64,000 bases of DNA from a phage. The notes beneath the pieces were generated by a model. That model did no database searches, was not told the DNA's origin, and saw only the letters and a program-made list of their open reading frames with translations. Below are positions 1,939 through 61,555 of the stretch, in pieces (position 1 is the first letter of the stretch; each line of letters starts with the position of its first letter). Where the stretch lies: the sequence record OZ346187.1; one strand, given 5' to 3'. The position numbers and the translations under genes are program-made.

Positions 1939-4006
1939 ATTTATGGCATCTGCATACAACCGTTTCGGTGAGCCAAACCCGAAAGCAATTAAGTATAAAA
2001 GTGGGGGAAGTGTGAAACGAGACTATCGTGATGAAAAAGAGGTTGAAACTGTAGAGACTGTTTTAGAAAATACTAAAATCGTCCCTGTCCCACAACAAAA
2101 TATCGGTCTGATGGCTGCACAATATTTTGGTGTGCGATCAGCATTGTCCCAAGAAGACGGTGTGACAGTCACTGCAACATATTTCCCATATTACGACCGA
2201 TACGGAAATCTGTCCGGTTTCAAAAAGCGTGACTGGACTATTCCTAAAGAACAAAGGGGCCACTTCTCCGTTGTTGGCATAGTAAAGGCCAACTCCCAGA
2301 TGTTTGGTCAAAAGCTGTGTGCATCTTCCAACAACCGTAAGCAGATTAACGTTTGTGAGGGAGAAGGTGATGTTATTGCAGCATGGCAGGCTGCATATCA
2401 GATACAAGTAAAAGGGATTCTCACCAACGCTAAAGCCCCGGCAAAGGTGAAGCAGTGGGCTAAAGAGGTCCAGGACGGGATCGACGCAGTTATCAACGGT
2501 GGTGATCTGGCAGGAAAACCCTGCCTGCCTTTTGTTGGAATTAACTGTGGATGTGCAAACGCAGTAGATACTTTTGCAAACAATGAGAAGTTTATCCGTA
2601 GCTATGGAACAGTTGTGCTGGCAATGGATAACGATGCAGCTAACGAGGTAGAGAAGCAAAAACACGTCATTAAAGGTGTTGAGGCCACGCACAATATCGC
2701 AGCATTTTTGATGGCTGATAACGTTTACCACGTAGAATACCCTGGTGAAGTAAATGACCCTGACGGGGTAAAAGATATCCGTGACATGCTGAAGGCTAAA
2801 AAGCTGGAAGATATTGTCAACATGTTCCGGCACCCTGTTAAATATGTGCCTGATGCTGTGTCGGATTTAGAAGACTTCTCTATCGAGTCTTTGCGGAAAA
2901 AGACTTCCAACGGGGTAGATATCAGCGCAGAGTTCCCAAAACTGCAAAAAATGCTAAAAGGCTTGCACAAAGGGACACTCGTAATGCTTACAGGGCCATC
3001 AGGGGGCGGTAAAACAACTGTAGCTAAAAAACTGGAACATTGTATTGCAAGATACCTAATGGACCCGACATGCCCGAAGGCTGATGACTATGAAGAGGAT
3101 GATCGTCTATGTATGATCCATCTTGAGGAGGACCCAGAGGAAGCAATTAACTCCTTGTATGCAAACCAGTTAGGGTTTGATGTTAAAGAGTTTGTTGAAG
3201 ATCCTAGCCAGTTTTTAACTGATCAAGAACACGCAGAGATTCACCAATCATGGGCAAAAGCTGGAAAAATCAAAGTGTTCAAACATTTCGGATCTATTCC
3301 GGTGGACGAGTTGATTACCAAGCTTAAGCAAATGGTTTGCCTGTACCATTGCCGTTATATTGTGCTGGATCACCTATCCATGGTAATTTCAGGGCTTAAT
3401 GTTAAGGATGAGCGAAAAGAACTGGACATGGCTATGACTCAGCTGGCTGCGTTTTGTAAGCAGTTTAACGTGTTTATCTTGGTGATCGCTCACCTCAAAC
3501 GTACAGAGATTGTGCCTCCTAAGGACAAGGATGGTAACCCGTTACCTTTCTGGTATCCTGTGCGAAAAGAGAATTTGCGAGGATCGGCGGGGCTTGAACA
3601 GTTGAGTTGGGTAGTCATAGGTGTCGAGGCCGAAGAAATGGTGGATCGTTCTCGTGGACGTGTCCGTCTGGTAGGTCTTAAAAACCGTCCAGCAAAAACT
3701 CTAGGTATTGCTGACACTTTGGTTATGGACCCGCACACAGGTAAGTTCCATGATGCCAGTAATTGGTACTGGGACAAAGAAATGCAAATGTTTACAGACG
3801 GAGAAGGTGGGGAGGTTGTTTGGAGACCTCAGGCTATGTTTGAGGATCAGGAGCATGCAGTTGTAGAAACACCTATGGGCAAGGTTGTGGCTGATAAGGT
3901 TGTAACTCCTACTGTTAAGCCTGTTGACACGCAGGAAGACCTCCAGTACGATGATCCATCCTCTGACCCGGTCCCTGGTTTTGAGGATGATGAAACGCCT
4001 TTTTAA
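1928..4006 (+). CDS. DNA primase-helicase (TOPRIM + DnaB-like helicase)
   Basis: TOPRIM-like NVCEGEGD; Walker A LTGPSGGGKTT; DnaB-like CRYIVLDHLSM; acidic C-terminal tail ending DDETPF. Confidence 0.8.
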   Translation: MGSKFMASAYNRFGEPNPKAIKYKSGGSVKRDYRDEKEVETVETVLENTKIVPVPQQNIGLMAAQYFGVRSALSQEDGVTVTATYFPYYDRYGNLSGFKKRDWTIPKEQRGHFSVVGIVKANSQMFGQKLCASSNNRKQINVCEGEGDVIAAWQAAYQIQVKGILTNAKAPAKVKQWAKEVQDGIDAVINGGDLAGKPCLPFVGINCGCANAVDTFANNEKFIRSYGTVVLAMDNDAANEVEKQKHVIKGVEATHNIAAFLMADNVYHVEYPGEVNDPDGVKDIRDMLKAKKLEDIVNMFRHPVKYVPDAVSDLEDFSIESLRKKTSNGVDISAEFPKLQKMLKGLHKGTLVMLTGPSGGGKTTVAKKLEHCIARYLMDPTCPKADDYEEDDRLCMIHLEEDPEEAINSLYANQLGFDVKEFVEDPSQFLTDQEHAEIHQSWAKAGKIKVFKHFGSIPVDELITKLKQMVCLYHCRYIVLDHLSMVISGLNVKDERKELDMAMTQLAAFCKQFNVFILVIAHLKRTEIVPPKDKDGNPLPFWYPVRKENLRGSAGLEQLSWVVIGVEAEEMVDRSRGRVRLVGLKNRPAKTLGIADTLVMDPHTGKFHDASNWYWDKEMQMFTDGEGGEVVWRPQAMFEDQEHAVVETPMGKVVADKVVTPTVKPVDTQEDLQYDDPSSDPVPGFEDDETPF

Positions 4007-4068: not shown

Positions 4069-7000
4069 ATGAGTATGTGGAATTTTGACTTTGAGGCCTC
4101 AGGTCTTCTGGACGAGGAAGATCTTTACTACCATTGTGGCCTGTTTAAAGAGTTGAATAAAAATAATTTTATGTTGTTTTTGCCTATCAATGATAGATCT
4201 CATTACAGTGAAGAGGAGGTTGAAAAAGCAAAACAATTTATGCTGGCAAAGCAAGATATCTATCCTAGCTGCTCTGTCCGTATTGCGGATTTCAGCCAGC
4301 TTGAATGGTGGTTAACCGGGAACTCCGATTGGTCACCCACATCATTAAGTTGTCACAACTGTTTTAGTTATGACTTTATCTTGATGGAGAAGCTGTCTGG
4401 TATTCATTTTGATATGTTCCGTGATCCCAAGTGTATGGGGACAATCAATAATCATCAGGTGAACCTGTTCGACACTCTGCCAATGAGTCGTATACTATGG
4501 CCCGACAGACCGTTACCTAAAGGATGCCCTGATTCTGTATACAATCCTGTTACAAAACGTATGCAGCAGGTAGGTCCTCATGGCCTAATGGCGTGGGGGT
4601 ACGCTTTAGGAAACCAGAAGGTTAAAATTGATGACTGGAGAAATTTACCTCTGTGGAAGTATGTTGATCGTGTATTCGAGGACGTTATCATCCAGGAGCT
4701 GCTCTGGAAAGAGCTGGTAGCGGAATCAAAAGGTGTATTCTACGGCAAATCTGACATGCAGAACTTTATGTACGATCCAGCCAAAGAGAAGCCGAAAGGG
4801 TTCAAGAAGATTACCTGGAAGAATGCATTACGCCGAGGCATGCTGCAGCACTTCCTGATGGAGCTGCAGGCCCGTCAGGGTGTATACTTCGACATAGATG
4901 GAGCTATTGCTTTACGTGACCGTTGCGATGCGTGGATGAAAGAAATCGCTGATCGTGTTGAACCACAACTACCTTTAAAAGAGCTGTCAATGTCTCAGCG
5001 GCCCAAGTTCCCTGAAAAGCCGTTTAACCAAGACGGGACAATCTCTAATAATGGTTGGAAATGGTTAAAAGATAAGCTTGGCTATCCTGTAGACATGAGT
5101 GCTTTAGAGTTCAAAGCCCCGCCTAAGCGAGCATTTACCTCTACAGGAGATGTCAGCAAGATGGGGATAAAATGGTGTGAAGAGATGGGCTGCAAAGACC
5201 CCGATAAGATGGCTGATTTCTTGAGAGGCTATATTAAGGGCACCTCCACACCACAACCCTTACCTAAAGAGCTGATGGATCAGGCAATAAGTGATCTGCA
5301 GCAGAAGCGAATGCCTGACTGCAAGATACCTATGAAAATCAGCAATCAGGACGACATCAAGCGATACCTAATCAGTGCTGGTTGGCTCCCAACAATGTGG
5401 AGAACTAAAGATGTAACTAAAGACAGCAAGAAGAAAGCTTTACCTGATGCAGATGTTGATGCACGAGTATATGCATATATGGACGAGCTTTTGGAGTCAG
5501 AGTATTGTGACCTAATTATCAACTTCTGGAACAAAACTGATGCTAAGTTCCAGACAACCGTGCACAAGTTCCGAAGCTTTCCTAACTCCGAAAGGATTAA
5601 AAAGGAAGTATTCGGGAAAATACGTAGAAAAGCCAGGGCACTTATTACTTCTCCGCAACTGAAAGATACGTTTGGACACCTATGCCCAAATCTTGAAAAA
5701 TTGAACGGAGAGATGGCTAAAGATATCGTCTTGTGGTTATCATTGCGAAACCGCAGATCGGTCCTTGATCCAATCAAGGAGGATAAGGTTGATACTGGTC
5801 TTCTTAATCACCCACGTTTGAAGATTGACCATAAGCTTCCTGCTAAAAGCTCTGGATTAACAAACACTTCCAGACAGAAACACAGTATTTGTGCAAACAT
5901 GCCTAAACCATCTCCTAAAGTGGTTATGGGTAAAGAGATGCGTAGTCTGTGGGGTGTTCCTCCGGGATACTTTGAGATCGGTATTGACGGGTCCAACTTA
6001 GAGCAGCTTATCGGGGCTTGGGGTGCCTTTGAGTTCGACAACGGCCTGTATTATGATGTTGTAAGTAATGGCGATGCACACTGTTATTCAGGAGATACAC
6101 AAATTCTCACGGAGAAAGGGTGGGTGAGGTTTGAAGATCTTGATCCGGGAACACAAGTGTTCCAGTACGATCACAACACCTCGTCAATGAACCTTGTTAC
6201 TCCATTAAATTACGTTAAGCGTAGTTATTGTGGGGATATGTATCATTTCCACAACAGTAGTGTGGATTTTATGGTTACAGATCAACACAGGATGCTGACT
6301 GTGGATCACAGAAGCAATAAATTGTTTGAAGATTTGGCAAAAGACCTGAAAGCAGGTAAAGGGTCTAATTCAGGAAGAAGGTTTATCCATGCGGCAGAGT
6401 TTTATGGGAATACAACCTTATCTCCTGCCCAGGTTAATTTGCTTATTGCTATTCACGATGATGGGCACTTGCATACAAATAAGGACGGCAGCATCGTGTG
6501 CAGGATTCAGGTCGGAAAGGGAAGAAAAGTTGCAACGCTTTTAGATACTTTTTCTGCTCTAAGCCTTAGTTATGTAGAGCAGAGCGGGAAAACCACAAAA
6601 GGGGGCTTACTGGCGAGAAGGTTCCAATTCCACGTTCCGTCCTGGGTATTTGAGTTTTTGGACAACAATAAGGATTTCACCTATAACCTGATGAACCTTG
6701 ATAAAGAATCTAAAAACCTGTTTATAGCTTCTTTATCTAACTGGGACGGGTGGGTATCTTCCGAAGGTGGAAAGGTTGCTTACTACTCCCAGGCCGAGTG
6801 CAGGAAGAAATCTGTAGAGGTGGTGTCTGCGCTGGCTACTCAGTGTGGTTTACGGAATAATACGGTGGCGATTCACAAAAAAGGTCGTGCCGTGCAGCAC
6901 AGAATCACAATTGGTAGCAAACAGAGAGCAGGGTTGCTGACACTATCTAAAGAGTCTGTCGAGGTGAGCGGTTCTTTGGTTTATTGCGTTACCGTCCCTT

Positions 7001-7401
7001 CTGGAGCAATCATTGTGAGAAGGAATGGTAAAGTGGCAGTGTGCGGTAACTGTAATAACGCCAAAGCTTACTCTTCTGTAGCAGGCAAGGAGATTTCCCG
7101 TAACGATGGTAAACCTATCACGTATGGGGTTATGTATGGGGCACAAAAAGATAAAGTTGCAGATATGCTGGACATCTCCCCAGAGTTGGGACAAAGGGTA
7201 ATCGATGCACTCTGGGATGCCAACCCAGGTCTTAAGGGGCGCAAAGAGGATCTGGAGAAATTCTGGGAAGCAACAGGTAAGAAGTTTATCTACTCTTTTG
7301 ATGGTCATGCTATCTGGACCCGATCTAAACACTCTTTACTTAATGCATACCAACAAAATGGCGGTGCATCGTTGTGTGACTTAGTTGGAATACTCATGCA
7401 C
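4069..7401 (+). CDS. DNA polymerase, family A, exon 1 (contains an in-frame intein; ORF reads through to a stop at 7467 inside the intron)
   Basis: 3'-5' exo motifs FDFEASGL (Exo I) and CHNCFSYDF (Exo II); motif B-like RNDGKPITYGVMYGAQ; ORF ends ...GILMH just before the expected HDE of motif C. Confidence 0.85.
6082..7050 (+). mobile_element. intein with LAGLIDADG homing-endonuclease domain inside DNA polymerase
   Basis: Starts CYSGDTQILTEKG (intein block A), TDQHRML (block B TxxH), LAGLIDADG-like LLIAIHDDGH and LFIASLSNWDGW, ends ...VAVCGN followed by Cys (+1). Confidence 0.65.
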
Positions 7402-7737
7402 CACCAGATGGTGAAGCGTGGGTGGTACGATGAAGGTGTTCGTCGTATTATTTATTACCATAAATAACATTGTGGCTTCATAGAGTAATCTATGTCGAAT
7501 AACCTCTTTAACTGCGGGAAGCCTAAACCTTATGGCAAGGTAATCCGCAACGAAGCGCTCAAAAGAGCGAACGCTCAGAGGCCATTCCGAAAGGAAGTAG
7601 ACCAGCAAGTGCGGTCGAAATGGGAGGATTCCTGTGGTTGCTTATCATAGGAATATGAGATGGTCCGATCCTACGTGAAAACGTATGGCTATGCACGTAA
7701 TGGTGCGGGGTAGCTTAACGACCTACCTGAACTATTG
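7402..7737 (+). mobile_element. group I intron without ORF, interrupting DNA polymerase at motif C (boundaries approximate)
   Basis: P-like AACTGCGGGAAG, Q-like AATCCGCAAC, R-like CTCAGAGGCCA, S-like AGATGGTCCGATCC; joining exons gives ...ILMH-DEYQLQV. Confidence 0.6.
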
Positions 7738-8091
7738 GATGAGTACCAACTTCAAGTGCCTGACACACCGAAGTATAAGACTGTGTACACCTTCGACACA
7801 ATTGAAGAACTGGAAGCATTTAAGGCAGAGCAGGAAGCCAAACTTCATGTGTTCGACGGTCATAAGTACAAAAAGGCACGCAAGGATGAGGACGGAAACG
7901 AAGTGGTTGACAGAGACGGAAACACGGTGTACGATCCTATCCTGAACGATGACGGAAAGCTTGAACTTATCTGGAGCCCTGTGGGTGAAATGGTGGTACA
8001 TTGCTTCTGGCAAGCTTCTAAAATGATGGGAGTCCCGTTCCAGATCACAGGTGAATACTTGTGTGGTCGTAATTGGGGTGATTGTCACTAA
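7738..8091 (+). CDS. DNA polymerase, family A, exon 2 (C-terminal part)
   Basis: Begins DEYQLQV (completes motif C HDE) and ends GRNWGDCH, the conserved C-terminal His of family-A polymerases. Confidence 0.7.
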   Translation, partial: DEYQLQVPDTPKYKTVYTFDTIEELEAFKAEQEAKLHVFDGHKYKKARKDEDGNEVVDRDGNTVYDPILNDDGKLELIWSPVGEMVVHCFWQASKMMGVPFQITGEYLCGRNWGDCH

Positions 8092-8649: not shown

Positions 8650-8840
8650 AAGTAAAGTATCTTGCTGAAGGTATGAATAGGTATTTTACCCTTGGTGAAG
8701 AATATTGGCCCTTTACAAACAACGGCGATGTCTACGTGAAAGATAATTTCGGCACGCCGTGGTTTCTGCACTCTAATGGGCTGGGATACTCCATTTACTG
8801 CGGTGCAGTGAACAACACAACTCTTGCAGAGTTCGTTTAG
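8646..8840 (+). CDS. hypothetical protein
   Basis: ORF, ATGA-type overlap with upstream gene. Confidence 0.45.
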   Translation: MKVKYLAEGMNRYFTLGEEYWPFTNNGDVYVKDNFGTPWFLHSNGLGYSIYCGAVNNTTLAEFV

Positions 8841-8850
8841 AGGAGGTAGG

Positions 8851-9222
8851 ATGTTAGTAAAAGGTACCCACACAGTCAAACAACGTATTGAAGTTGAGAT
8901 TGATGATTGTGAGCTGAAGCATATTTTACGGTCATGCTCCAACGTTTTGCTCCTTAGTATTCTTCAGGAGCGAGCGGAGAACGAGTTCTTAAATGCATTG
9001 GCAGGCCGTCCCGGTGACTTCTGTGTGCGTAAGCGTGGTGACAACAAGTCGTGGTTGTGGGAGATCGATGCCGACTGGGATTACCACAAAAATGAGGGTA
9101 TAGATGAGCCTATTCGTGAACTGACGGACAAAGAGATTCAGATGTACAATGAAGTTTGTCATTGGGCAACACGCCAACAAATTTACCTAGACCCTGTGTG
9201 GCTGATTGAAAATAGTCGTTGA
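8851..9222 (+). CDS. hypothetical protein
   Basis: ATG at 8851 preceded by AGGAGG RBS. Confidence 0.45.
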   Translation: MLVKGTHTVKQRIEVEIDDCELKHILRSCSNVLLLSILQERAENEFLNALAGRPGDFCVRKRGDNKSWLWEIDADWDYHKNEGIDEPIRELTDKEIQMYNEVCHWATRQQIYLDPVWLIENSR

Positions 9223-9247
9223 CAAGAAGTAAGGTTAGATGTAAGAT
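9219..9247 (+). promoter_or_regulatory. sigma70-like promoter TTGACA-17-TAAGAT
   Basis: -35 TTGACA and -10 TAAGAT with 17-nt spacer, upstream of ORF 9299. Confidence 0.55.
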
Positions 9248-9298
9248 ACTCCTCACAAACAGAGTATTGATTGTTAAATAATTAAGGAGACCTCTAAG

Positions 9299-9526
9299 AT
9301 GAAAATCATGTTGAAACCAGAATGCGTTGCAAACGACCGAGCTTTTAAAGATTGCACACTTGGCGCTACTTATGAAGCAGAGTTTTGTGAGAACCCTTTG
9401 GTAAAAGCCCTTTTGGAAGAAGTACTTTATCACAAGAAGAGCTTGATGAGCTGGAAAACTCAGCACAGTGCCTTACCTTTAAAGATGATGAAGGAGACTC
9501 TGTCTGGTGCACTGTTAACGAAGTAG
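9299..9526 (+). CDS. hypothetical protein
   Basis: ORF with AGGAGA RBS. Confidence 0.5.
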   Translation: MKIMLKPECVANDRAFKDCTLGATYEAEFCENPLVKALLEEVLYHKKSLMSWKTQHSALPLKMMKETLSGALLTK

Positions 9527-9552
9527 TTTTTGTAAAAACTGAACATTAATAC

Positions 9553-9590
9553 TTGACAACAGCGATAGGACCTAATACAATGGTCCTATC
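9553..9590 (+). promoter_or_regulatory. sigma70-like promoter TTGACA-17-TACAAT with overlapping inverted repeat GATAGGACC/GGTCCTATC (candidate operator)
   Basis: Consensus -35 and near-consensus -10; perfect 9-bp inverted repeat brackets the -10. Confidence 0.6.
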
Positions 9591-9612
9591 AAAACGAAAG
9601 GGGACCACAGCA

Positions 9613-9873
9613 ATGACCAAACAATATCAACGAATTAAAGCCAAGGTTAAGCCAGACTATCTAGAGAAGGACTCTGCTTTTCGGGACTGCACAGCTGACA
9701 AAGTTTACACAGGGGCCGTCCTGTTGAACGATAAACTTGAAGTAGATGTGCTGGGTAAAGAGGCCGTTATCGAGGATGACAACGGTGACTGTGTTTTCTG
9801 CACCACACGAGAGCTAGAAGTCTTAGAATATTTCGGTGAAATCTTCAACTCCTTAGACGACGAGGAAGCGTGA
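9613..9873 (+). CDS. hypothetical protein
   Basis: ORF-track 9553-9873; start moved to ATG 9613 downstream of promoter, with AAGGGGA RBS. Confidence 0.5.
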   Translation: MTKQYQRIKAKVKPDYLEKDSAFRDCTADKVYTGAVLLNDKLEVDVLGKEAVIEDDNGDCVFCTTRELEVLEYFGEIFNSLDDEEA

Positions 9874-34086: not shown

Positions 34087-35349
34087 TCAGCAACTACAAC
34101 TTCCATAGTGCTTAACTCGCTCGATAACTTCCGCTTGCTTACCTTTATTGTAAGGACGGGAGTTAGGACTGGAAAGGTATCCAGACACACGTCGAATTAC
34201 ACTGATCGTTCCCTCTTCATGGTTTCCACACTCTGGGCATACAAAGCCTTTAGCTGTTGCACTGAACTCACCAGAGAAACCACACTTGAGACATTTATCC
34301 ACAGGTTGGTTAATACCAAAATACATAATATGTTTATACCCGAAGTCAACAAGAGCCTCTAAAGCATCCAGGTTGTTTTTCAGGTTAGGTGTCTCTACGT
34401 ATCCAATGTTGCCACCAGAGGAGATCATAGCAAAACCTTCCTCATACTCCCACTTATCAAAAGGAGAGCTATTTATCCACACTGGCTGATGGAAACTGTT
34501 GGTGAGATATTCATGCTCGTGCTTTAACACTTCTGGATATTCACGATCCAGACAGGTTGCAGCTTTATAGCATAGACTCTCAGAAGGAGTGCCGTACAAG
34601 CTAAATGCTAGTCTACTTTCCTTCTTGTATCGCTCACAAGCATCTCTCATGTGCTGAAGGATTCCAAGAGCTAAAGCCTTGTCACCTTCTCTGCCCAAAA
34701 TCTGACAGGTTTCATACACACCAATATACCCAATACTGATGGAAGCGTACCCGTCATAGAAGAGTTTATCAATACTTTCTTCGGGATCCAGGCGAGCAAG
34801 AGCGCCTTCACACCACATGATGGGGTTCTGCCCTGCCTTTGTTCCTTTTAGACGGTTAACCCTTACAAGGTGAGCCTCGTATGCAAGATCCAAGTATTCG
34901 TCAAGAACTGCAAAGAAATCAACACATTCCGTCTTAGCTTTTGCCGCAATCATTGGCAGGTTAAGGCTAACAACACCCAAGTTGAATCTGCCGAGGTATT
35001 TCTCCTCACCTGTTTCCAAGTCATTGTATTTGCTAAGAAAACTCCGGCAACCCATACTCGTTACTTTGCCATCTGTCGAGCCTGTCACTTTACGATTTAG
35101 TGGAACAGAAACAAAGTCAGGATAAATCCGCTCTGCAGAGCATTCCAGAGCTAATCGTTTCAAATCATAGTTAGGATCTCCGGGGTTCATGTTGACACCC
35201 TCTTCTAGGAAGAACAGCACTTTAGGGAACACAGGTGTGATACGTTCTTCACCAAGACCCATTTTGTGGACTTTCAAGTAATTTTTGGTAATCATTCTAC
35301 CAAAGACCGAGGTATCCAGTCCTAAACTTAATGTGATGAATGGAGTCTG
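34087..35349 (-). CDS. nrdD: anaerobic ribonucleotide reductase NrdD, exon 2
   Basis: Glycyl-radical motif RRVSGYL; strong similarity to the T4 NrdD C-terminal half; exon begins QTPFITLSLG upstream of ORF-track start 35295. Confidence 0.85.
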   Translation of the reverse strand, partial: QTPFITLSLGLDTSVFGRMITKNYLKVHKMGLGEERITPVFPKVLFFLEEGVNMNPGDPNYDLKRLALECSAERIYPDFVSVPLNRKVTGSTDGKVTSMGCRSFLSKYNDLETGEEKYLGRFNLGVVSLNLPMIAAKAKTECVDFFAVLDEYLDLAYEAHLVRVNRLKGTKAGQNPIMWCEGALARLDPEESIDKLFYDGYASISIGYIGVYETCQILGREGDKALALGILQHMRDACERYKKESRLAFSLYGTPSESLCYKAATCLDREYPEVLKHEHEYLTNSFHQPVWINSSPFDKWEYEEGFAMISSGGNIGYVETPNLKNNLDALEALVDFGYKHIMYFGINQPVDKCLKCGFSGEFSATAKGFVCPECGNHEEGTISVIRRVSGYLSSPNSRPYNKGKQAEVIERVKHYGSCSC

Positions 35350-36146
35350 CTGTCTCCTCCCTGTGTTTCCACAGGGCCAGACTATCTATTACTCTACTTC
35401 AATAAGATAATAACCCTTTATTGTGAGATGCTTACCTTCGGCATTTCCTTCGATAGCCCTGTGAACGTTACCTACGTTCAAATTTAAGGCTTTTGCACAG
35501 GCGTAGAGTGAAGGATATTCACCCACCAAGATTTTCCCTTTGTATGCCTGCACTTTCCTATAGCACTTACCTGGACAAAGTCCTGTTCGGAAAGCATGTC
35601 TCTTATTATCTTCCGGCAAAACCCACTCTAGGTTAGACGGATGATCATTCAATGTATTGCCATCTTTATGATTCACTTCCCAGTTTTCAGGGTCTTCTGG
35701 GACATCTGGCAAACAATACAAGGCAACAACCCTTGAGGTTTGGATTCGAATCTTTTTACCTTTGTGGTTGAAAGAGTACATATAACGGCGTTTAACATGC
35801 TTATTACCTTTTCCATAACCTCCCCACAATATTGGGTGCAGCATTCCACGTTTTCCGTATACGTTTCCAACTTCATCAATCACATAGTTTGATTCTTCAC
35901 CATTAAGAATGATCTTTTTCATAGAGCCTCTCCATTTCGAAGTTAGTATTTCAACTAACCCCTACACTACTTGGTTCAGAAATGTTTGTCAAGCATCTCT
36001 GCCTTTCGTTAGTCGTTACAACCGTTCCAACTCCTGTAAGAACTAGTCACGGGATTGGCATAGCTTTCGCCTTAGCGTTCCCCGTTAGCCGGATTTACCG
36101 ACCCCTCTTATGAGGTTAGGAGAGTTTTACAACGGCCAGTTTGTTA
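35350..36146 (-). mobile_element. group I intron in nrdD carrying an HNH homing-endonuclease ORF
   Basis: 5' exon ends GGU, intron starts UAA; ACGGGGAAC and CAAUCCCGUG elements as in the T4 td/nrdD introns; S-like UAGAUAGUCUGG at the ORF stop; intron ends in G before CAG. Confidence 0.8.
35389..35922 (-). CDS. HNH homing endonuclease (intron-encoded)
   Basis: EVNHKDGNTLNDHPSNLEWV...NKRHA HNH motif; lies entirely inside the nrdD intron. Confidence 0.75.
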   Translation of the reverse strand: MKKIILNGEESNYVIDEVGNVYGKRGMLHPILWGGYGKGNKHVKRRYMYSFNHKGKKIRIQTSRVVALYCLPDVPEDPENWEVNHKDGNTLNDHPSNLEWVLPEDNKRHAFRTGLCPGKCYRKVQAYKGKILVGEYPSLYACAKALNLNVGNVHRAIEGNAEGKHLTIKGYYLIEVE

Positions 36147-37007
36147 ACCGTTGACAGAAGTTAACGTATTGATTTGATAGAGCAAAGTCTGCATGCTGTC
36201 AAATACGTCTTTATCTGTCATTTGCATTGCAACAGTCTCAGCATCTGGCAACCAATGTTCCTGGCAAAATTTAAGGTTCTTCTCATAAGTCGCCTCAGCA
36301 TACTGTGCCAAATAATGGTCAATATGGCTCATAGTCTGACCCCCATATTGAGCACTAGCTACTGCACTAGAGATTTGGCTAAGGATTGTTGTTGCAACCC
36401 CTATTGACTTCGGCTTACTGACATGGGCGTTACCAATGTTGAATCCGTTTTCCAACATATCTGGATAATTTACCAAACAACAGTTTGTTAACGGACTGAT
36501 CAAGTAGTCAAGATCATGCACATGGATGAAGCCTTTATTGTGCTCTTCTGAGACACGGTCTGGCAGGATCTGTGTTGATGCAAGGTGTTTGCTAAGGATG
36601 CCTGCAAGCAGGTCACGATGAGTGTGTACATGATTGGTAGGCTTATTTGCGTTTTCTTTTGTAAATTCATCACAAGTTCGATCCAAGAAGCCACTAATAT
36701 CTGCAAGCAGTTTTCCACCTGCCTCTCTGTTATTATCTCTTGTCTGTCTATACTGGATGTATTCTCTGGCTGCACATTTTAAACCCATATCCATAAGAGC
36801 ATCTTCAACAAGGATATGGATATTTTTTACAGAGATCGTGCACTGGTCGGTTGGTAGATTGTTAGCAACAACTTCATTAACCGCACAAGCGATCCGGTAA
36901 GCTTCTTCTTCAGTATGTCCAGACTCAAGTAAGGCGGACTCTGCCGCCTTGATCACCTTAATTCCGTTATAGACCTCTTCTCTACCGTCCCGTTTTACAA
37001 CTTTCAC
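36147..37007 (-). CDS. nrdD: anaerobic ribonucleotide reductase NrdD, exon 1
   Basis: GFIHVHDLDY, TNCCLVNYPDMLENGF, KSIGVATTILSQ match T4 NrdD; ends ...TLTSVNG at the splice site. Confidence 0.85.
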
Positions 37008-60742: not shown

Positions 60743-60817
60743 GCCCTGTTAGCTTAGTGGATAAAGCAGCGGCCTTCTAAGCCGTTGACACTGGTTCGAG
60801 TCCAGTACGGGGTGCCA
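60743..60817 (+). tRNA. tRNA-Arg (anticodon TCT), CCA encoded
   Basis: Cloverleaf: acceptor GCCCTGT/ACGGGGT, D-arm GCTT..AAGC, anticodon loop CTTCTAA, T-arm ACTGG-TTCGAGT-CCAGT. Confidence 0.8.
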
Positions 60818-60821
60818 AATT

Positions 60822-60908
60822 GGGGAGTTATCCCGTAGAGGTAGCGGTGTAGACTGTAAATCTATTGTCATTGCGACTCGGGTGGTTCGACTCCACCACT
60901 CCCCACCA
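60822..60908 (+). tRNA. tRNA-Tyr (anticodon GTA), long variable arm, CCA encoded
   Basis: Acceptor GGGGAGT/ACTCCCC, anticodon arm GTAGA-CTGTAAA-TCTAT (GACUGUAAAUC as in E. coli tRNA-Tyr), T-arm GGTGG-TTCGACT-CCACC. Confidence 0.8.
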
Positions 60909-61022
60909 AATTTATATTTTTAGATGCATAAATAATACAGATAATGGCATTGATATTTATCGTCGTTTATACTAGTCACTAACTGCTCGAAAATCAGTGT
61001 CATTATCAGTATAATTTATAAA

Positions 61023-61113
61023 GGAGGGTAGGGAGCAATGGTGCTCAAGCGGTCTTGAAAACCGTCCCGTTGAGGATGACTCGATGATGGTTCGATTCCA
61101 TTACTCTCCGCCA
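61023..61113 (+). tRNA. tRNA-Ser (anticodon TGA), type II, CCA encoded
   Basis: Acceptor GGAGGGT/ACTCTCC, anticodon arm GCGGT-CTTGAAA-ACCGT, long variable arm, T-arm GATGG-TTCGATT-CCATT. Confidence 0.75.
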
Positions 61114-61211
61114 CATTGTTGACCTTGTAATTAAGCGAAAGCCGGAAGCAGAACCGGATTATCAAATGTTACAGTCGTCATCGCCGACTAGCAACATGGT
61201 CAACATACTGA

Positions 61212-61310
61212 GCTAGGTAAGCCCTTTGGCAAGGGCGAGGATTTTTAATCCTGAAAATAGACGAGGTAGTCGTTGAATACATAGGTGGTTCGATTCCATC
61301 ACCTAGCACC
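61212..61310 (+). tRNA. atypical tRNA-like gene (possible tRNA-Lys TTT with ~30-nt extra arm) or tRNA pseudogene
   Basis: Perfect acceptor GCTAGGT/ACCTAGC, D-arm GCCC-TTTGGCAA-GGGC, T-arm GGTGG-TTCGATT-CCATC, but 47 nt between D and T arms; loop TTTTTAA on a 4-bp stem. Confidence 0.4.
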
Positions 61311-61315
61311 TTTTT

Positions 61316-61391
61316 GCTGATGTAGCACAATCGGTAGTGCAATTGATTTGTAATCAATAGGTTGTAGGTTCAAGTCCTGCCATCAGCACCA
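61316..61391 (+). tRNA. tRNA-Thr (anticodon TGT), CCA encoded
   Basis: Acceptor GCTGATG/CATCAGC, D-arm GCAC..GTGC, anticodon arm ATTGA-TTTGTAA-TCAAT, T-arm GTAGG-TTCAAGT-CCTGC. Confidence 0.8.
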
Positions 61392-61392
61392 A

Positions 61393-61467
61393 GGCCCTGT
61401 AGCTGGAAGGTTCAAGCAAGCGACTCATAATCGCCAGACGGTGGTTCAATTCCACCCAGGGCCACCA
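61393..61467 (+). tRNA. tRNA-Met or Ile2 (anticodon CAT), elongator-type, CCA encoded
   Basis: Acceptor GGCCCTG/CAGGGCC with G1-C72 pair, anticodon loop CTCATAA, T-arm GGTGG-TTCAATT-CCACC. Confidence 0.75.
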
Positions 61468-61478
61468 AATAGTAAATA

Positions 61479-61555
61479 CTCCGCGTAGCTCAGCTTGGTA
61501 GAGCGCCTGATTTGGGATCAGGAGGTCGAGTGTTCGAATCACTCCGTGGAGACCA
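61479..61555 (+). tRNA. tRNA-Pro (anticodon TGG), CCA encoded
   Basis: Acceptor CTCCGCG/CGTGGAG, D-arm GCTC-AGCTTGGTA-GAGC, anticodon arm CCTGA-TTTGGGA-TCAGG, T-arm GAGTG-TTCGAAT-CACTC. Confidence 0.8.

Follow-up and report, generated by a model that had tools for sequence, protein, structure and literature searches.

The nrdD locus and the boundaries of the insertion

The anaerobic RNR gene nrdD was located on the minus strand of the window (the whole stretch of 64,000 nt of phage DNA analyzed here, sequence record OZ346187.1), where it is interrupted by an insertion of 797 nt (36146..35350, minus strand) that harbors an open reading frame (ORF) for an HNH endonuclease. Exon 1 (37007..36147, minus strand) comprises 287 codons, encodes the ATP-cone and the N-terminal part of the NRDD domain and ends with ...TLTSVNG; exon 2 (35349..34087, minus strand) comprises 420 codons plus the stop, starts with QTPFITLSLG and encodes the C-terminal part of NRDD and the glycyl-radical domain. 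In terms of the Pfam profiles, the ATP-cone and NRDD positions 1–154 fall in exon 1, and NRDD positions 156–562 and the glycyl-radical domain in exon 2. Both exons are intact and conserved. In this region, the window is 98% identical to the Escherichia phages slur16, slur12 and FFH2, myoviruses of the rV5 type that belong to the genus Vequintavirus; among the records that match, some bear the name "Campylobacter phage".

An initial annotation, made from the sequence, had proposed that the two NrdD fragments align collinearly with T4 NrdD and that the gap between them starts with UAA after an exon-terminal GGU and ends in G. All of this was borne out. The fragments are collinear with T4 NrdD at 45% identity, with no gap in the junction region; the last codon of exon 1 is GGT (36149-36147) and is followed by an in-frame TAA, and the insertion terminates with the G at 35350. 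The minus-strand orientation of the insertion had been left unstated. Ligation of the two exons would produce an mRNA with a reading frame for a 707-aa NrdD (...TLTSVNG-QTPFITLSLG...), and the resulting coding sequence of 2124 nt equals in length the nrdD coding sequence of phage rV5 (85653..87776).

The nrdD gene of rV5 is uninterrupted, and a 300-nt query made of the joined window exons matched it contiguously with 98% identity. At the junction, rV5 has ...TCTGTCAACGGG|CAAACTCCATTCATA and the window has ...TCTGTCAACGGT (intron) CAGACTCCATTCATC; intronless nrdD DNA of the rV5 type reads ...TCTGTCAACGGGCAAACTCCATTCATA... Near the junction the two alleles differ by silent changes, with GGT, CAG and ATC in the window in place of GGG, CAA and ATA. 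Since the intronless rV5 allele matches the spliced junction, the boundaries of the intron are independently proven. Together with the equal length of the two coding sequences and the covariation described below, this agreement goes well beyond coincidence.

Regarding previous knowledge, the GenBank records of the BASEL phages MaxBurger and AlexBoehm already give nrdD as a joined coding sequence around a "putative homing endonuclease", with intron boundaries that were set by comparative genomics (PMC8594841). Most GenBank records of these phages present the locus as separate fragments of nrdD, two in number, and a protein labeled "hypothetical" or HNH. The terminase introns are the only introns mentioned in the rV5 paper, and our literature search retrieved no paper that characterizes the nrdD intron of the window or shows its splicing, cleavage or homing. 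This intron is an already annotated, uncharacterized member of a very well-known kind. The gene is better annotated as a single spliced gene for the 707-aa NrdD, a correction with little significance beyond annotation.

Distribution of intron-containing and intronless alleles

Among approximately 121 related phage records, the intron with its ORF was present in 28, at identities of at least 98.7%, and an ORF-less intron of 257 nt occupied the same nrdD site in another 14. The remaining records, around 79, were classed as intronless by subtraction, and an uninterrupted nrdD was directly seen in rV5 and others. Such a patchy distribution is the pattern of a mobile intron. Intronless, ORF-less and ORF-containing alleles at one site constitute a natural series for the gain and loss of an endonuclease gene within a ribozyme.

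More diverged homologues of the HNH ORF (46–65% identity) were found in metagenome assemblies and, wherever their neighborhood was readable, they lay at the same nrdD site. Further ORF-less versions were retrieved with a DNA pattern spanning the exon–intron boundary, so that the ORF-less forms known to persist at this site range from 257 to 279 nt. Two homologues were left out of the comparison: one that lacks the 5' half of the intron (P0007, in L057), and another (P0009) that has no nrdD fragment among its neighbors and looks free-standing.

Comparison of individual homologous introns revealed a mosaic. The ORF-containing intron of L052 and the ORF-less one of L060 are 99–100% identical from P1 to P4 and from J8/7 to the end, compared with 26–35% in P6, P7.1 and P8, while the pair L059 and L060, both ORF-less, showed the opposite pattern of identity. 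Judged from these sequences, introns that are otherwise identical have evidently exchanged their middle section, from P6 to P8, whether or not it includes the endonuclease gene. In addition, introns interrupt nrdD genes at no fewer than three other sites, of which one is that of T4 and two occur in relatives of the window phage.

Secondary structure of the intron

The structure of the intron was drawn by hand and each helix was checked; all coordinates given below refer to the minus strand. Every core element of a group I ribozyme could be drawn, namely the P3/P7 pseudoknot, P4-P6, P8, P9, J6/7 and J8/7.

The 5' strand of P1, CAACGGU (36153..36147), corresponds to the last 7 nt of exon 1 and pairs over 7 bp with GCCGUUG (36136..36130) of the internal guide sequence (36139..36130). 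At the 5' splice site, the terminal U36147 of the exon forms a U·G pair, which was invariant in nine of nine homologues. The first three nucleotides of the guide sequence, CUG (36139..36137), can pair with CAG of exon 2, forming a 3-bp P10. A chance UGGCCG/CGGCUA pairing that would compete with P1 was dropped, being unconserved in AlexBoehm. Both the exon-terminal U paired with G in P1 and a terminal omega G, at 35350, are hallmarks of group I introns that were found here.

P3 is formed by CUCUCC (36124..36119) and GGAGAG (35933..35928), the latter doubling as the Shine–Dalgarno sequence of the HNH ORF. An alternative P3, in which the 5' strand lies directly 5' of J3/4 as in the Rfam alignment of AlexBoehm, yielded only about three inconsistent base pairs. 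We kept CUCUCC/GGAGAG because it forms 6 bp in every homologue, undergoes a C-G to G-C swap among them, and has an equivalent in the intron of Bacillus phage S4-2 (UCCGAUU/GGUUGGA). Two extra hairpins, P3.1 (36115..36104) and P3.2 (36102..36088), both with compensatory changes, separate the 5' strand of P3 from J3/4. As judged by eye, this arrangement recurs in several phage introns of IMG/VR with a shared P4 motif, and it seems to be characteristic of a sub-lineage and not peculiar to the window copy.

The P4-P5-P5a-P6 domain spans 36085..36024. The elements ACGGGGAAC and CAAUCCCGUG, to which the initial annotation had drawn attention, are both present and constitute the two strands of P4 (36085..36080 and 36054..36049, ACGGGG/UCCCGU); P5/P5a carries a GAAA loop, and P6 occupies 36043..36024. 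J6/7 (GGUUGUAAC) and the 5' strand of P7 follow at 36023..36010, with the P7 strand GACUA at 36014..36010. P7 was invariant among the homologues.

Downstream of P7 there are two further hairpins, P7.1 (36001..35977), with UUGACA in its loop (35992..35987), and P7.2 (35962..35939). Subgroup IA2 is defined by two hairpins, P7.1 and P7.2, that follow P7, precede the 3' strand of P3 and are joined by G-U-A (PMC3428280), and the window intron has both hairpins and a linker ending in GUA. P8 pairs GCUCUAU (35927..35921), which overlaps the AUG of the ORF, with GUAGAGU (35397..35391), made of its last codons up to the stop, so that the ORF itself is accommodated in the P8 loop. J8/7 (AAUAGA) and the 3' strand of P7 span 35390..35380, with UAGUC at 35384..35380, and are followed by P9 (CCCUGUG-GAAA-CACAGGG, 35376..35359), where compensatory changes were also found. 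Lastly, a hairpin at the 3' splice site (35357..35342) pairs GGAG of the intron tail with CUCC, nucleotides 5–8 of exon 2, and exposes G35350 and the junction in its loop.

Covariance-model scores and covariation analysis

A covariance-model search had been suggested as a check of the group I assignment, and its outcome was mixed. The window intron matched the Rfam group I model RF00028 partially, with 23.3 bits (E = 0.0017), and did not reach the gathering score of 50 bits. Similarly, a scan of the whole window with Rfam at the gathering threshold gave no match at the nrdD insertion; that scan found a different intron at 7452-7687. The model is interrupted by the 534-nt ORF in P8, which is why the match is only partial, and the ORF together with the extra hairpins explains the shortfall below 50 bits. 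ORF-less homologues aligned across the entire RF00028 model, also below 50 bits: AlexBoehm scored 29.8, L007 27.4, L059 32.9 and L060 41.8 bits, with E-values from 3e-3 to 1e-7.

For the covariation analysis, nine distinct homologues were aligned after removal of the ORFs, and their stems were positioned manually to fit the proposed structure. Counts were made for 69 pairs in 14 helices, and 99.0% of the cells formed a standard pair, compared with 35–49% in a control in which the 3' partners were slid by 1–3 columns. Changes on both sides occurred in 33 of the 69 pairs, and none of 500 shuffles reached any of the observed measures, although these counts lean towards the structure because the alignment was fitted by hand and some helices are not homologous between forms. 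Compensatory changes were distributed over P3.1, P3.2, P5a, P6, P7.1, P7.2, P8 and P9; for P7.1 and P8, which are non-homologous between the ORF-containing and ORF-less forms, they therefore indicate that a hairpin is always present and not true covariation. Covariation is uninformative on P7, given its invariance. The outermost pair of P1 covaried between host exon and guide sequence, where C-G, U-A, A-U and U·G were all observed.

The HNH endonuclease encoded in the P8 loop

The ORF (35922..35389, minus strand) encodes a protein of 177 aa that resembles I-HmuI. It matched the Pfam family HNH_3 with 29.5 bits (cut-off 24.8), in agreement with the HNH endonuclease that had been predicted in the insertion; its NUMOD-like domain remained below the Pfam cut-off when scored alone (18.4 vs. 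27). The protein is collinear with I-HmuI (PDB 1U3E; 177 vs. 174 aa) over residues 8–160 (E = 1.8e-4). An AlphaFold model had a mean pLDDT of 88.6, and a Foldseek search of this model against the PDB returned 1U3E as the sole significant match (E = 7e-10, 188 columns), with a TM score of 0.47, a low value expected for a modular protein modeled without DNA. The architecture of I-HmuI is reproduced, with an N-terminal β-sheet DNA-binding region, an HNH domain and a C-terminal helix-turn-helix (NUMOD-like) domain. Residues N84, H85, N89, N97, N106 and H109 were invariant in ten homologues.

The original proposal, that nrdD is interrupted by a group I intron carrying the gene of an HNH homing endonuclease, is supported. 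We conclude that positions 36146..35350 very probably represent a mobile group I intron of subgroup IA2 in the nrdD gene of an rV5-like Vequintavirus and, as far as can be judged from its sequence, the intron is almost certainly functional.

Integrity of the window copy and alternatives to splicing

A single position of the core departs from the family. Position 35388, within J8/7, is a U in the window, compared with a G in the other aligned homologues, in phita32, in the T4 nrdD intron and in the Rfam consensus (AAGAUAUAGUC). This G-to-U change is private to the window copy among the homologues compared; none of the 28 database copies has it or is identical to the window over 35330-35450, where the best differ by a single base. 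U35388 could lower the efficiency of splicing, and the window copy might even be a crippled member of a true self-splicing family that makes little or no NrdD. Since nrdD of T4 is dispensable in aerobic culture, an isolate kept in the laboratory could retain such a splicing defect. We nevertheless consider a crippled copy unlikely, as joining segments often tolerate one substitution, the ORF is intact, like the remainder of the core, with an ORF product 100% identical to its slur16 counterpart, and U35388 is possibly a sequencing error.

It was also considered that the insertion does not splice at all, being an endonuclease cassette that splits nrdD into two polypeptides, as mobE does in nrdA of Aeromonas phage Aeh1, or that it has turned nrdD into a pseudogene. 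There are precedents for split RNR genes, phage CB7 has an intron-like HNH insertion that failed to splice (PMC7344957), and splicing of the window intron is itself deduced from sequence; moreover, exon 2 has an in-frame ATG 18 codons from its start, at 35295. A protein initiated at M35295 would, however, lose the conserved QTPFITLSLG, and the arrangement differs from that of Aeh1 nrdA/mobE in that a ribozyme fold is present and no start codon was found at the junction. The full fold is conserved with compensatory changes, including the pairings to both exons, ORF-less versions of 257–279 nt persist at the site, and the exons are intact and conserved. Because the fold is conserved, ORF-less versions persist and the junction has no start codon, a non-splicing split gene or pseudogene is highly improbable, and a splicing intron remains our reading of the locus.

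Comparison with the T4 nrdD (sunY) intron

The initial annotation had classified the intron as T4 nrdD-like. This label could not be maintained, as the two introns differ in insertion site and codon phase, in the family and position of the ORF, and in their core sequence. The T4 nrdD intron (1033 nt, 9848..8816 of the T4 record, L004) splits codon Y180, equivalent to Y277 of the window, after its first base, whereas the window intron follows G287 in phase 0, 32 nt downstream of the T4 site in a stretch where the alignment is free of gaps. The ORF of the T4 intron, located 3' of P9, codes for the GIY-YIG enzyme I-TevII, in contrast to the I-HmuI-like HNH ORF in the P8 loop of the window intron. 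Further, P3.1 and P3.2 have no counterpart in the T4 intron, which scored 105 bits against RF00028, compared with 23–42 bits for the window intron family. What the two introns do share is the host gene, the character of a group IA phage intron, mobility and a patchy distribution.

The idea that the sunY lineage moved into another genome draws on the common host gene, on the IA-type phage ribozyme of both introns and on short core motifs that they have in common (UAAC at the 5' end, ACGGG...CAAUCC, CGACUA and AGAUAGUCUG). The core identity between them is nevertheless approximately 51%, which is within the range of shuffled controls (mean 39%, maximum 51%). This contrasts with a second intron, inserted after ...(T/P)SMG in phita32, L007, L059, L060 and L041, whose core is 78–81% identical to that of T4 and which scored 70–75 bits against Rfam. 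It occupies a third nrdD site, which is empty in the window.

The same annotation had also seen in the window intron a lineage shared with T-even phages, which the comparisons do not support, apart from one qualification. A true homologue of the window intron was found in L041, an uncultured phage with 75.8% identity to Tequatrovirus in its NrdD; the homologue lies at the same NG|Q site and encodes a 177-aa HNH ORF with 46% identity. A lineage related to T4 thus has an intron of this family, although the nrdD intron of T4 itself is not a member of it. This homologue in a T4-like nrdD is a further point that could be read in favor of descent from sunY. Set against the different site and codon phase, the different ORF, the extra hairpins and the scores, such a descent has next to no likelihood, and we regard it as already largely refuted by the sequence comparisons. 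An intron in the same gene as that of T4 need not be the same intron, and in this clade the T4-like ribozyme sits at yet another site.

Relationship to other phage introns

The window intron is best compared with the phage introns of the I-HmuI type, with which it shares an IA2 ribozyme, P7.1 and P7.2, and an HNH endonuclease of around 175 aa. It differs from them in its host gene, which is nrdD and not a DNA polymerase gene, in its occurrence in Vequintavirinae coliphages and in a protein identity of only about 23%.

A close relative that lacks the ORF is the nrdD intron of the AlexBoehm group (BASEL collection; MZ501048, annotated as a joined coding sequence), which has the same site, architecture and virus genus. 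The 5' half of that intron is 86–90% identical to the window intron. The differences lie in its length of 257 nt, the lack of an ORF, a P8 that is a simple hairpin, a P7.1 reduced to a mini-hairpin and an unrelated central region.

Another similar intron is an unannotated one in a dnaE-like gene of Bacillus phage S4-2 (PQ069204), which contains a 42-nt match to the P4-P5 region with 90% identity. It shares the unusual order of P1, 5' strand of P3, two hairpins, J3/4 and P4, as well as an I-HmuI-like HNH ORF. Unlike the window intron, it resides in another host gene, and its ORF is located in P6 instead of P8.

Proposed mechanism of splicing and homing

From the anatomy of the sequence, the intronless and ORF-less alleles, the covariation of the fold and the endonuclease family, we infer the following scheme for splicing, cleavage, homing and regulation. 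The nrdD pre-mRNA would carry the intron, which would fold into the ribozyme through the U·G pair of P1, P3/P7, P4-P6, P7.1/P7.2, P8 and P9. Free guanosine would then attack after U36147, and the freed 3' OH of exon 1 would attack after the terminal G35350, resulting in ligated exons.

As for mobility, phage group I introns encode the nicking enzymes I-HmuI, I-HmuII, I-BasI and I-TwoI (PMC3428280, PMC2988022). The HNH enzyme of the window intron, judged by its analogy to I-HmuI, I-BasI and I-TwoI, probably nicks an intronless nrdD (that of rV5, for example) close to the site of insertion in a mixed infection, and recombinational repair would copy the intron into the nicked allele. Because its I-HmuI-type kin nick DNA, nick-initiated homing is the most likely mode of spread.

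Possible coupling of ribozyme and endonuclease gene through RNA structure

The Shine–Dalgarno sequence of the ORF, GGAGAGG, coincides with the 3' strand of P3, and the AUG and the last codons of the ORF form P8. With the Shine–Dalgarno sequence held in P3 and both start and stop in P8, folding of the ribozyme and translation of the ORF should exclude each other. This would resemble the intron endonucleases of T4, whose ribosome-binding sites are sequestered in RNA structure (PMC2988022).

More broadly, a coupling of ribozyme and endonuclease gene by RNA structure, of a kind undescribed for this family, is possible, if doubtful. TTGACA in the P7.1 loop is followed 17 nt on by TAGTGT in four of the five diverged lineages with an ORF. 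This TTGACA-N17-TAGTGT arrangement may be an internal promoter of the σ70 type, from which a transcript without the 5' strand of P3 would free the Shine–Dalgarno sequence. The proposal is speculative: a promoter scan of 35200-36400 gave no site at the threshold of the tool, and the idea is weakened because the ORF-containing intron of L041 has neither P7.1 nor TTGACA.

Finally, the hairpin at the 3' splice site, formed between the intron tail and nucleotides 4/5–8 of exon 2, occurred with five different stem sequences among the homologues. Its stem appears to co-evolve with the codons of the host gene, and the hairpin would form part of the same proposed coupling.

Base pairing across the 3' splice site of the nrdD intron

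In the window, the 3' tail of the nrdD intron base-pairs with nucleotides 4/5–8 of exon 2 (35357..35342, minus strand), so that the 3' splice site lies in the loop of a hairpin. The same hairpin was found in seven homologues, namely the ORF-containing intron of L052, the ORF-less introns of L059, L060 and AlexBoehm, the loci L053 and L056, and L041, an uncultured phage with a T4-like nrdD. Its stem covaries with the host codons, the pairings being GGAG/CUCC, GGGCA/UGCCC, GGGG/CCCC, GGCG/CGCC and GGCUG/CAGCC. We know of no named equivalent of this element.

J8/7 (35390..35385, minus strand) reads UAAUAGAUAGUC in the window copy, with a U at 35388, where all other homologues compared, T4 and the Rfam consensus carry a G (AAGAGAUAGUC or AAGAUAUAGUC). 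When 35330–35450 was compared with the 28 phage records carrying this ORF-containing intron, none was identical and the closest differed by one base. U35388 could be a variant affecting splicing efficiency or a sequencing error.

A candidate promoter in the P7.1 loop

The P7.1 loop contains TTGACA, followed 17 nt further on by TAGTGT (35992..35964, minus strand), about 65 nt 5' of the HNH ORF. Across four diverged variants with the ORF, the P7.1 stems are entirely different and TTGACA is unchanged; none of the ORF-less variants has it. L041 carries the ORF and lacks both P7.1 and TTGACA. TTGACA-N17-TAGTGT may be an internal sigma-70-type promoter. A promoter scan over 35200–36400 called no promoter at the tool's threshold, at these hexamers or elsewhere in that interval.

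Start codon and further interruptions of nrdD

In the BASEL records, nrdD begins at an internal ATG (MDMGLKC..., window 36794, minus strand), which leaves out the ATP-cone. The rV5 record supports a predicted GTG start at 37007 (minus strand), as does the Pfam ATP-cone match (residues 1–91, E = 1.7e-14). This GTG overlaps the stop codon of the glutaredoxin gene.

A second nrdD intron, inserted after ...(T/P)SMG, is present in some relatives and absent from the window. It lies at about 2561–3310 in phage phita32 (L003), 2246–2485 in L007, 9009–9284 in L059, 3947–3707 in L060 and from about 3432 downwards in L041, and scored 70–75 bits against Rfam. Although its ribozyme core is 78–81% identical to that of the T4 nrdD (sunY) intron, its insertion site is a different one, and the 169-aa ORF of the phita32 copy is of the HNH rather than the T4-style GIY-YIG type. 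In L053 (1478–2469) and L054 (827–1818), nrdD is in three pieces because a third interruption, located upstream and containing a 206-aa HNH_3 ORF, splits the ATP-cone fragment from the following NRDD fragment.

Related and additional elements

A related IA-type intron splits a dnaE-like (PHP-domain) polymerase gene at 2449–3155 of L005, the entirely unannotated record of Bacillus phage S4-2; its 154-aa, I-HmuI-like HNH ORF is located in P6.

Elsewhere in the window, the region 4069..7760 (plus strand) covers sequence of a family A DNA polymerase gene, with ORF 4069–7467 as the N-terminal part of that gene. This ORF contains a Hint/intein-like insert, the Pfam Hint_2 and DNA_pol_A matches both being weak. 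An ORF-less group I intron at 7452–7687 (plus strand) scored above the Rfam cut-off (64.7 bits), and the polymerase frame seems to pick up again downstream of it, near 7715 (...YYH|DEYQLQV). Finally, Rfam tRNA matches of 29.9 to 76.8 bits define a six-gene tRNA cluster at 60743..61552 (plus strand).
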